Below, piece by piece: positions 3,001 to 6,000 of a stretch of DNA of 64,000 nt. Within the stretch, counting starts at the first letter, position 1; every line of letters starts with the position of its first letter. Origin of the DNA: Escherichia coli (lineage in GTDB: Bacteria > Pseudomonadota > Gammaproteobacteria > Enterobacterales > Enterobacteriaceae). The position numbers were made by a program. Where the stretch lies: NCBI RefSeq assembly GCF_045037415.1, contig NZ_CP173438.1; one strand, 5' to 3'.

Positions 3001-6000
3001 AGTGCAGTCACCGGACGTTTCCGTAACCCGTACATCAAGCATCAACTGCTGTCTATCGCGCTCAACGGTATGACCAAGTTCCGCACACGCATCCTGCCGC
3101 AGCTGCTGGCAGGGCAGAAGGCAAACGGCACACTTCCGGCGCGCCTTACTTTCGCATTAGCGGCATTGATTGCGTTCTATCGCGGTGTGCGTAATGGAGA
3201 AACATATCCGGTACAGGACGATGCACACTGGCTGGAACGTTATCAGCAACTCTGGAGCCAGTATCGTGACCGTGTTATCGGGACCCAGGAACTGGTAGCG
3301 ATTGTGTTGGCAGAAAAAGACCACTGGGAGCAGGACCTGACGCAAGTGCCTGGTCTGGTCGAGCAGGTTGCTAATGACCTGGATGCGATTCTCGAAAAAG
3401 GGATGCGCGAAGCTGTACGCCCGTTGTGCTAATACTCTGAACCCGGTTTCGACCGGGTTTCTTATTCCGCTATATTAGTTACAACATTCTATATGCCTTT
3501 ATCATTAACAGGTGCCACATGCAGCACCTGTTAATGTTGTAATCTTGTAGGTAATTTGTAAGTAGTATCTTGAGAATGTGATCATAATCACGTTTAATAG
3601 GGCGACTTTTCCACGCCTGAAGATAACCATGATTGTTCGTCCACAACAACACTGGCTGCGCCGTATTTTTGTCTGGCACGGTTCAGTATTATCCAAGATA
3701 TCCTCGCGCTTACTACTCAATTTTCTCTTTTCGATCGCTGTTATTTTCATGCTGCCCTGGTACACGCATTTGGGCATTAAATTCACCCTCGCACCGTTCA
3801 GCATTCTCGGTGTCGCCATCGCCATTTTTCTTGGTTTTCGTAATAATGCCGGTTACGCCCGTTACGTTGAAGCGCGAAAACTTTGGGGGCAGTTGATGAT
3901 TGCCTCGCGGTCGTTACTGCGCGAGGTAAAAACGACATTACCGGATTCGGCAAGTGTAAGGGAGTTTGCCCGGCTGCAAATCGTCTTCGCCCACTGTTTA
4001 CGCATGACATTACGCAAACAGCCACAGGCAGAAGTGCTGGCTCATTATCTCAAGACTGAAGATCTTCAGCGTGTACTGGCTTCTAACTCTCCAGCTAACC
4101 GCATCTTGTTAATAATGGGGGAGTGGTTGGCGGTTCAGCGACGCAATGGACAACTTTCAGATATCCTGTTTATTAGCCTCAACGATCGGCTTAATGATAT
4201 TTCAGCGGTCCTGGCAGGATGCGAGCGCATTGCCTATACGCCAATTCCCTTTGCCTACACCCTGATTTTGCATCGCACCGTGTATCTGTTTTGTATCATG
4301 TTGCCGTTTGCGCTGGTCGTGGACCTGCATTACATGACGCCTTTTATCTCTGTGCTGATTTCCTACACTTTTATTTCGCTGGATTGTCTGGCGGAAGAAC
4401 TGGAAGATCCCTTCGGTACTGAAAACAATGATTTACCGCTGGATGCCATCTGCAACGCTATTGAAATTGACCTGTTACAGATGAATGATGAAGCAGAAAT
4501 TCCAGCGAAAATTCTTCCCGATCGCCATTACCAGCTGACGTGATAATTACTCCGTACGGCGGGCAACAATAAACAGACGCGGAAATGCCAGCAATATCTG
4601 TCCGTTCTCCTGGAGGGGATATTGCTCTTCCAGCATCTGATGGTAGCGCGTAAGAAAATGCTGCTGTTCGCTCTCGGTCAGATCCTGTAACCACGGACGT
4701 AATCCAGTGGCGGTCACCCAATCGATAATCGCCTGGTGCGACGGCATCTGGTGATAGTAAGTGGTTCGCCAGATATCGACCTCACATCCGGCTTCACTCA
4801 GAATATCGTAGTAAGCATGAACGCCAGCCAGCGGCTCACGCCCGCGATCCGGATAATTTTGTTCCCAGGCGACTTCGCGCATGAGCACATGGGTTGGCTC
4901 TAGCCAGTTATCTGGCATCTGTATTGCCAACACACCATGCGAATTAAGTAACGAAACCAAATGAGGAAACAATTCGTAGTGGTCGGGCAGCCATTGCAGT
5001 GAGGCATTAGCAAAAATCAGATCGAGTGCCTGTTCCGGTTGCCAGTTGCGGATATCTGCTTCCACAAACAGGCAGTCTGGCAAAGCACTGCGCGCTTCAG
5101 CAATCATCGCCGGAGATGAGTCGATGCCCGTTATCCTGGCAGCAGGCCAACGTTGGTGTAGAAGGGCGGTGATGTTACCTGGGCCACAGCCAAGATCGGC
5201 AATGTATTCGATATTCTCCAGCGGCACCCTGGCAAGCAGCTCCACCGCCGGACGCGATCGTTCAGCGGCAAAGTGCAGATATAAAGAGGGGTTCCAGTCA
5301 GACATTTTTTTACTCCCGTCAGCGCGTTACCCCAATTGTAGATAAAACTGATAAATTCGCCTCACGGCATCACCCCATTGAACAGACGTTTTTTACGCGG
5401 CCCGGTCATTAAGATTACAGATTCCGGTAGTCAAAGAAGCCACCGCATTAGGATGTGCTTTTTTAAATCCTCCTTTTTATCCGCGATCGCGGATATCGCA
5501 GCGTTTATCCCGTAGAGCGGATAAGATGTGTTTCCAGATTGACTTTATCCTCACTAAAGGATAAAACTGATAATATCCCCTTAAGCGGATAAATTTGCTG
5601 TGGACGTATGACATGATGAGCTTTCAGAAGATCTATAGCCCAACGCAATTGGCGAATGCAATGAAACTGGTTCGCCAGCAAAACGGCTGGACGCAGAGCG
5701 AGTTGGCGAAAAAAATCGGCATTAAGCAGGCGACAATTTCCAATTTCGAAAACAATCCTGACAATACCTCGCTCACGACATTTTTTAAGATTTTACAGTC
5801 GCTTGAACTCTCAATGACGCTATGCGACGCGAAAAATGCCTCGCCAGAAGCAACAGAACAGCAAGATCTGGAGTGGTAATGCCTAAACTAGTCACTTGGA
5901 TGAACAACCAGCGGGTAGGCGAGTTAACGAAGTTAGCCAACGGCGCGCACACCTTTAAGTATGCAGCTGAGTGGTTAGCCAGCCGTTATGCCAGACCGTT

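Follow-up and report, generated by a model that had tools for sequence, protein, structure and literature searches.

The short tam-hipB gap of a phylogroup-B2-type Escherichia coli: probable scar of an old loss of the lsr genes and an adjacent autotransporter gene

In a 64-kb window of Escherichia coli DNA (the window being the whole stretch that we analysed), the genes tam and hipB lie only 307 bp apart. The best overall explanation, to which we would give a probability of about 0.9, is that this gap is a scar: ~14.6 kb of DNA with lsrRK, lsrACDBFG and an autotransporter gene of the ECSE_1600 family was lost long ago in the lineage from which phylogroup-B2-type E. coli descends. The presence or absence of lsr decides whether an E. 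coli strain takes up and answers the interspecies signal AI-2. According to published genetics, cells of the B2-type lsr-negative genotype still make AI-2 via luxS, and they neither import nor phosphorylate it nor mount an LsrR response. The locus in the window is this already published genotype of phylogroup B2 (Brito 2013; Keizers 2025), and it holds no new biology. What is added here is the anatomy of the scar at the level of single bases, the joint loss of the autotransporter gene, the lack of intermediates in 5426 genomes and the dismissal of a conspicuous 14-bp repeat as the cause of the deletion.

The window matches E. coli SK1144 at 99.99% identity over all 64 kb, the two being separated by 4 SNPs and one 2-bp indel, and the gene calls are drawn with the help of the SK1144 annotation (Table 1). 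The coding sequences of tam and hipA are respectively 94.3% and 96.5% identical to those of K-12. The hipB stop overlaps the hipA start at 5879 and four operators lie upstream of hipB; the features of an autoregulated hipBA operon are thus present. The gap between the divergent neighbours runs from 5306 to 5612. We set it at 307 bp because the SK1144 annotation puts the hipB start at the ATG at 5613 and the protein that begins with this ATG fills the HipB model from position 1 to position 88. A preliminary description of this DNA had rightly seen tam and hipB as divergent neighbours, but its gap of 289 bp (ending at 5594) was counted from an in-frame TTG at 5595 that opens the longest ORF, and is too short. 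A permissive Rfam scan of positions 5100-5900 returned no RNA family.

Table 1. Features of the tam-hipBA locus, in window coordinates
Feature	Position	Strand	Evidence
tam, trans-aconitate 2-methyltransferase, intact, 252 aa	4547-5305	-	NCBIfam NF002463, 441 bits vs cut-off 297; SK1144 RefSeq annotation
Retained lsrG-tam spacer, 56 bp	5306-5361	-	55/56 bases identical to K-12 (98.2%)
Candidate sigma-S-type tam -10, TACAAT, with C at -13 (5341)	5340->5335	-	match by eye
14-mer GATAAAACTGATAA, copy 1, in the lsrG-tam spacer directly upstream of the candidate tam -10	5341-5354	+	exact match
lsrG 3'-end remnant, last ~60 bp; last 16 codons clear, stop codon 5362-5364	5362-5424	-	blastn block, tblastn
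Breakpoint 1, lsrG 3' end joined to lsrK interior	5420-5424	.	ungapped and gapped comparisons
lsrK internal fragment, 38 bp, K-12 LsrK codons ~449-461, K-12 orientation	5421-5458	+	blastn, tblastn
Breakpoint 2, lsrK interior fused to hipB upstream DNA, 154 bp from hipB	5458-5459	.	K-12 comparison
Retained hipBA control region	5459-5612	+	97.4% identity to the K-12 hipB upstream region
HipB operators (TATCCN8GGATA) O1, O2, O3, O4	5478-5495, 5506-5523, 5546-5563, 5574-5591		regex match to operator consensus
14-mer GATAAAACTGATAA, copy 2, occupying the O3-O4 spacer in the hipBA promoter	5560-5573	+	exact match
hipB antitoxin, 88 aa	5613-5879	+	NCBIfam NF007271, 183.8 bits, model positions 1-88/88; SK1144 RefSeq annotation
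hipA toxin kinase, intact, 440 aa	5879-7201	+	SK1144 RefSeq annotation; HipA N-terminal domain TIGR03071

The order in K-12 is tam-lsrG-F-B-D-C-A, lsrR-lsrK, a frameshifted autotransporter gene of the ECSE_1600 family (the ydeK/ydeU/yneO pseudogene) and hipB-hipA, just as the preliminary description had it. In that strain tam and hipB are 14,903 bp apart, and 14,596 bp of the K-12 sequence is missing from the window. The flanks on the other hand are collinear, with 94-98% identity, and K-12 and the window share the lsrG-tam spacer and all four HipB operators. The preliminary description had proposed an alignment to K-12 as the way to define the junction, and sensitive blastn against the K-12 locus does so, resolving window positions 4000-7300 into three collinear blocks with breakpoints near 5421 and 5458. 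Block 1 (window 4000-5424, positions 19454-20879 of the K-12 sequence L001) covers tam and the spacer and continues 64 bp into lsrG. This lsrG tail is 93.3% identical to K-12 and its translation still encodes ...LMTGPRKKRLFNGVMP-stop; in tblastn, LsrG residues 81-96 match at 5412..5365 with E = 3e-7. The second block is an island from the interior of lsrK, identical at 36 of its 38 positions to L001 29240-29277 (blastn, E = 7e-11) and found at the same place in CFT073 and GmF052. Block 3 (window 5458-7300) corresponds to the K-12 DNA that begins 154 bp before hipB and extends through hipA.

Two pieces of K-12 sequence are thus gone, one on each side of the lsrK island. Breakpoint 1 removes ~8.36 kb, comprising the remainder of lsrG, lsrF, B, D, C and A, lsrR and most of lsrK, and its microhomology amounts to only 3-4 nt (TTC/ATTC). 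Breakpoint 2 removes ~6.23 kb (L001 29278-35508), which held the 3' end of lsrK, the autotransporter gene and the 68 bp that follow this gene, with a microhomology of about 1 nt. Compared base by base, neither joint contains an IS element or a long repeat. We envision that two collinear deletions, one from lsrG into lsrK and the other from inside lsrK to the point upstream of hipB, would have been closed by illegitimate (microhomology-level) end joining or by replication slippage, rather than by IS- or repeat-mediated recombination. Both would have occurred together or in quick succession. Chimeric probes, each designed for a genome with just one of the two deletions, found no such genome among 5426.

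The claim that the lsr genes and the autotransporter gene are gone from the tam-hipB junction is borne out by these blocks. In fact, blastn and tblastn detect nothing of either in the whole 64-kb window beyond the two short remnants in the gap: when all eight K-12 Lsr proteins are compared with the window by tblastn, only LsrG residues 81-96 and LsrK residues 444-462 match, and the autotransporter DNA has no match in the window at all. The preliminary description had overlooked both remnants, and also that the polymorphism is published and phylogroup-wide. It had proposed a search for lsr in the rest of the genome, which we ran on the nearest complete chromosome, that of SK1144, in place of the source assembly. 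The probe was a composite of a hipB anchor and nine 60-bp pieces (lsrG, F, B, D, C, A, R, K and the autotransporter gene). On the SK1144 chromosome and on those of 29 further genomes that share its junction, plasmids being separate records, it matched at one place, the anchor, and no lsr piece found a match.

The remnants also speak to the direction of the change. It could be argued that the short tam-hipB arrangement is the ancestral one, and that other E. coli lineages gained the lsr/autotransporter block by horizontal transfer. The distribution of lsr is patchy, literature cited in PMC12263705 has put forward horizontal transfer of the operon, and PMC3595036 gives an ancestral-state likelihood for the presence of lsr of just 0.60. 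However, a site that had always been empty would carry neither the ~60 bp end of lsrG with its stop codon nor 38 bp of internal lsrK sequence, let alone both in K-12 order and orientation. Chance similarity is countered by the E-value of the lsrK fragment (7e-11) and by the contiguity of the lsrG block with the tam block. We thus consider an ancestral short gap highly unlikely, and conclude that the lsr block was lost, not that it was never acquired, because the stop-codon end of lsrG and the interior piece of lsrK persist in the order and orientation of K-12. This conclusion fits the reconstruction by Brito et al. 2013, in which the E. coli ancestor had lsr and at least 8 independent losses followed (PMC3595036), with only that likelihood of 0.60 for ancestral presence. 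The gain is modest: the leftovers of lsrG and lsrK settle the direction as loss, more firmly than the ancestral likelihood does.

Could the junction be an artefact, a collapsed or mis-joined contig in which lsr is really present? This was the scenario under which the preliminary description would have withdrawn its own claim. We found no point in support of it, and the same junction recurs in 955-966 independently finished genomes, CFT073 and ATCC 25922 among them, while the loss of lsr is described in published genome surveys. A 131-bp probe spanning both junctions (5375-5505) is contiguous in 966 of the 5426 complete E. coli genomes (17.8%), including ATCC 25922, and a 1354-bp probe from tam to hipB is contiguous in 955 of them. 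Misassembly is excluded because the identical junction is contiguous in these 966 complete genomes, and we would grant it next to no credence. In addition, CFT073 and GmF052 each have a 307-bp gap that can be aligned to that of the window base for base and has identical breakpoints; over the 131-bp scar, ATCC 25922 shows 99.2% identity; and the DNA from lsrF to lsrK has no match in 1047 of the 5426 genomes. The 131-bp double-junction sequence may serve as a compact marker of the genotype.

The gap holds a further peculiarity, noted at the outset: the 14-bp direct repeat GATAAAACTGATAA, which is indeed exact and occurs exactly twice in the window. The repeat had been placed with its second copy abutting HipB operator O3. 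The contact with O3 is real but takes the form of an overlap with the last 4 bases of this operator; the operator that the copy directly abuts is O4. A repeat of this length is rare by chance, since 5000 dinucleotide shuffles of the 307-bp gap produced one only once, and none was present in 425 other chunks of 307 bp from the window or in 100 shuffles of the whole window. Such rarity invites the idea that the 14-mer mediated the deletion, by recombination or slippage, or that it is a duplication made by the event. Yet recombination between direct repeats leaves one copy, at the joint, whereas here both survive, 80 bp and 102 bp from the breakpoints (~5421 and ~5458). Moreover, both copies stand at homologous positions in lsr-positive strains, exact or at 13/14. 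In K-12 the tam side reads GATAAAATTGATAA and the hipB side GATAAAACTTATAA; each matches the 14-mer at 13/14 positions and the two differ from each other at 2/14. The exact 14-mer is found on the tam side in the lsr-positive strain 23CRST026 and on the hipB side in O26:H11 strain 11368, where the autotransporter gene is kept beside hipB. In lsr-positive strains the two homologous places are ~15 kb apart. We therefore reject the 14-mer as substrate or product of the deletion, a role that is scarcely conceivable because both copies exist beforehand where the intervening DNA is kept, and lie away from the breakpoints. Two AT-rich promoter-proximal segments may rather resemble each other by coincidence, made conspicuous by the deletion, which left them 219 bp apart.

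The loss also bears on the expression of tam. Published work names lsrACDBFG-tam as one unit (PMC8085971). The lsrA promoter that drives this unit is gone from the window, and its input to tam transcription (from PlsrA) is, unlike in K-12, no longer possible. From there, however, the preliminary description went on to say that tam must use a different promoter, and this was overstated: the 56-bp spacer is still there, at 98.2% identity to K-12, as is ~60 bp of the lsrG 3' end, and both sigma-S dependence of tam and a transcription start of its own are published. The identity of the spacer is above that of the tam coding sequence (94.3%) and of the lsrG tail (93.3%). On the minus strand it reads ...TTATCAGTTTTATC-TACAAT-TGGGGTAACGCGCTGAC-GGGAG-TAAAAAA-ATG, with GGGAG as a good Shine-Dalgarno sequence and TACAAT as the candidate -10 hexamer. 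Sigma-S promoters favour a C at -13, and a TAYAMT-like hexamer is typical of their -10. The hexamer is TACAAT in K-12 and the B2 strains, and TACACT in 23CRST026. A scan of positions 5200-5700 for consensus sigma-70 promoters and terminators returned nothing.

Published work on tam points in the same direction. It is preferentially transcribed by E-sigma-S in vitro, from its own mapped start (PMC3141248), and is RpoS-dependent in EDL933 (PMC2907692). In the lsr-negative B2 strain 83972, PMC12263705 describes tam as induced at entry into stationary phase and unaffected when lsr is restored in trans. Because the spacer is retained and conserved and because of this published sigma-S dependence, separate start and induction in 83972, we propose that tam most probably keeps the same proximal promoter as in K-12, its position being suggested by the by-eye -10 and by conservation. 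In strains with the scar, tam would now be transcribed only from this proximal, probably sigma-S-dependent promoter in the spacer, with no read-through from PlsrA.

The deletion has nevertheless moved the promoter regions of tam and hipBA close together, and one can imagine that they became coupled, either because the 14-mer serves both genes as a protein-binding site or because the proximity of the HipB operators matters, which would tie tam expression to hipBA autoregulation. The candidate tam -10 is now 138 bp from operator O1, and the two 14-mer copies sit beside the candidate -10 regions of two divergent genes. But the copies are direct repeats, and hence have opposite orientations relative to their divergent genes; the motif corresponds to no known factor and differs from the HipB half-site pattern TATCCN8GGATA; the K-12 copies mismatch each other at 2/14 positions; and tam in the lsr-negative strain 83972 looks like a case of ordinary stationary-phase induction (PMC12263705). 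Such coupling is therefore improbable. In its most explicit form, the B2 deletion would have made a new divergent control region of 307 bp in which binding of HipB/HipA, DNA bending or a factor that recognises GATAAAACTGATAA couples the sigma-S-dependent tam to the hipBA persistence module, a link absent from K-12; this we regard as very improbable.

How does the locus compare with what is known of phylogroup B2? In the survey by Keizers et al. 2025 (PMC12263705), homology to the lsr locus has shrunk to <100 bp in more than 95% of B2 genomes, while tam is kept. The lsr residue in the window falls under this limit, the lsrG tail (~60 bp) and the lsrK island (38 bp) each being shorter than 100 bp. 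The likeness to the lsr-negative B2 genotype of Brito et al. 2013 (PMC3595036) and Keizers et al. 2025 thus extends to the absence of lsrRK-lsrACDBFG, to the size of the lsr residue and to a full-length tam, and two B2 reference strains, CFT073 and ATCC 25922, have an identical junction. The frequency of the scar (966/5426, 17.8%) agrees with the 18.6% share of B2 given for the Keizers survey. We call the window B2-type by its junction, the Clermont markers (chuA, yjaA, TspE4.C2) and luxS lying outside the 64 kb. From the published genotype it differs in nothing substantive; the base-level anatomy of the breakpoints and the co-loss of the autotransporter gene are points that the available parts of these papers do not spell out. 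PMC12263705 links the loss of lsr in B2 (ExPEC, ST131-type) to competitive fitness, and a pangenome study places the lsr operon among the gene clusters that set ST131 apart (PMC9205054).

Independent erosions of lsr in non-B2 strains affect the same locus with the same outcome, the loss of AI-2 uptake, and differ from the scar in breakpoints and mechanism. In TUM12357, an IS1A lies between a truncated lsrG and hipB, and in WP4-S18-ESBL-08 lsrD is fused to a remnant of the autotransporter gene. Strain 23CRST026 differs in yet another way: it keeps lsr and an intact autotransporter gene, and it is hipBA that is absent.

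The window and the near-identical complete genome of SK1144 differ by four SNPs (at 603, 41883, 53848 and 57992) and by a single indel, 2 bp at position 7236, which lies shortly 3' of the hipA stop codon. The table lists those features of the window that are reduced in K-12.

Features of the window that are truncated or partly missing in K-12
Feature	Coordinates	State	Position
Sensor diguanylate cyclase	336-1754	intact, 472 aa
Fimbrial operon	7931-12440	complete	downstream of hipA
RelE/ParE-family (HigB-like) toxin gene	35058-35619	frameshifted	adjoins yddM

The K-12 counterpart of the diguanylate cyclase gene is dgcF, an N-terminally truncated pseudogene, and at this site the window is longer by about 498 bp. 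A second diguanylate cyclase gene, dosC, is incomplete in the window: at 27821-28033 about 1.26 kb of K-12 sequence, comprising most of the gene, is gone, leaving a frameshifted remnant of 164 bp immediately upstream of an intact dosP. With dosC mostly lost and dosP intact, the DosC/DosP pair is thus reduced to its phosphodiesterase.

In the fimbrial operon, the gene for a fimA-like major subunit is followed by those for a chaperone and an usher, and then by ydeS/R/Q. About 3.3 kb of it is missing from K-12, where only the truncated pseudogene ydeT represents the usher, whereas the usher of the window is intact (883 aa). K-12 also lacks most of the HigB-like toxin segment at yddM, and the window is about 420 bp longer there; yddM itself encodes an intact HigA-family antitoxin.

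Several K-12 segments are absent in turn. At 21671-22589, between ydeM and gadB, about 6.3 kb is missing, which in K-12 comprises yddA, yddB and the 5' portion of pqqL; what persists of pqqL is an N-terminally truncated M16 metallopeptidase remnant. The dosP-osmC interval (30531-30601) is devoid of the 6.16-kb ddpXABCDF operon, which serves D-Ala-D-Ala dipeptide utilisation, and the yddG-narU interval (41454-41457) is short of about 1.96 kb that in K-12 carries a fragment of the yddL porin gene together with a pseudogene of the leucine-rich-repeat type.

The hipBA region also varies between strains. In the lsr-positive strain 23CRST026 (locus L005, 28012-34156) hipBA is absent, and only a truncated HTH regulator fragment is found upstream of the fimbrial operon; the 5.4-kb ECSE_1600-family autotransporter gene is intact in this strain but a pseudogene in K-12. 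The annotation of CFT073, a B2 reference strain, lists hipA (locus L003, 1533-1754 and beyond) as a pseudogene truncated at the C-terminus, while the window and SK1144 both retain an intact hipA of 440 aa.

The hipBA promoter allele at 5539-5575 is likewise not that of K-12, a difference that may affect hipBA expression. The K-12 promoter reads ...AAAACTTATAATATCC, a perfect TATAAT; ...AAAACTGATAATATCC stands in its place in the window, in other B2 strains and in O26:H11 11368. The B2 strains carry one additional T 3' of TTGACT, which alters the spacing.
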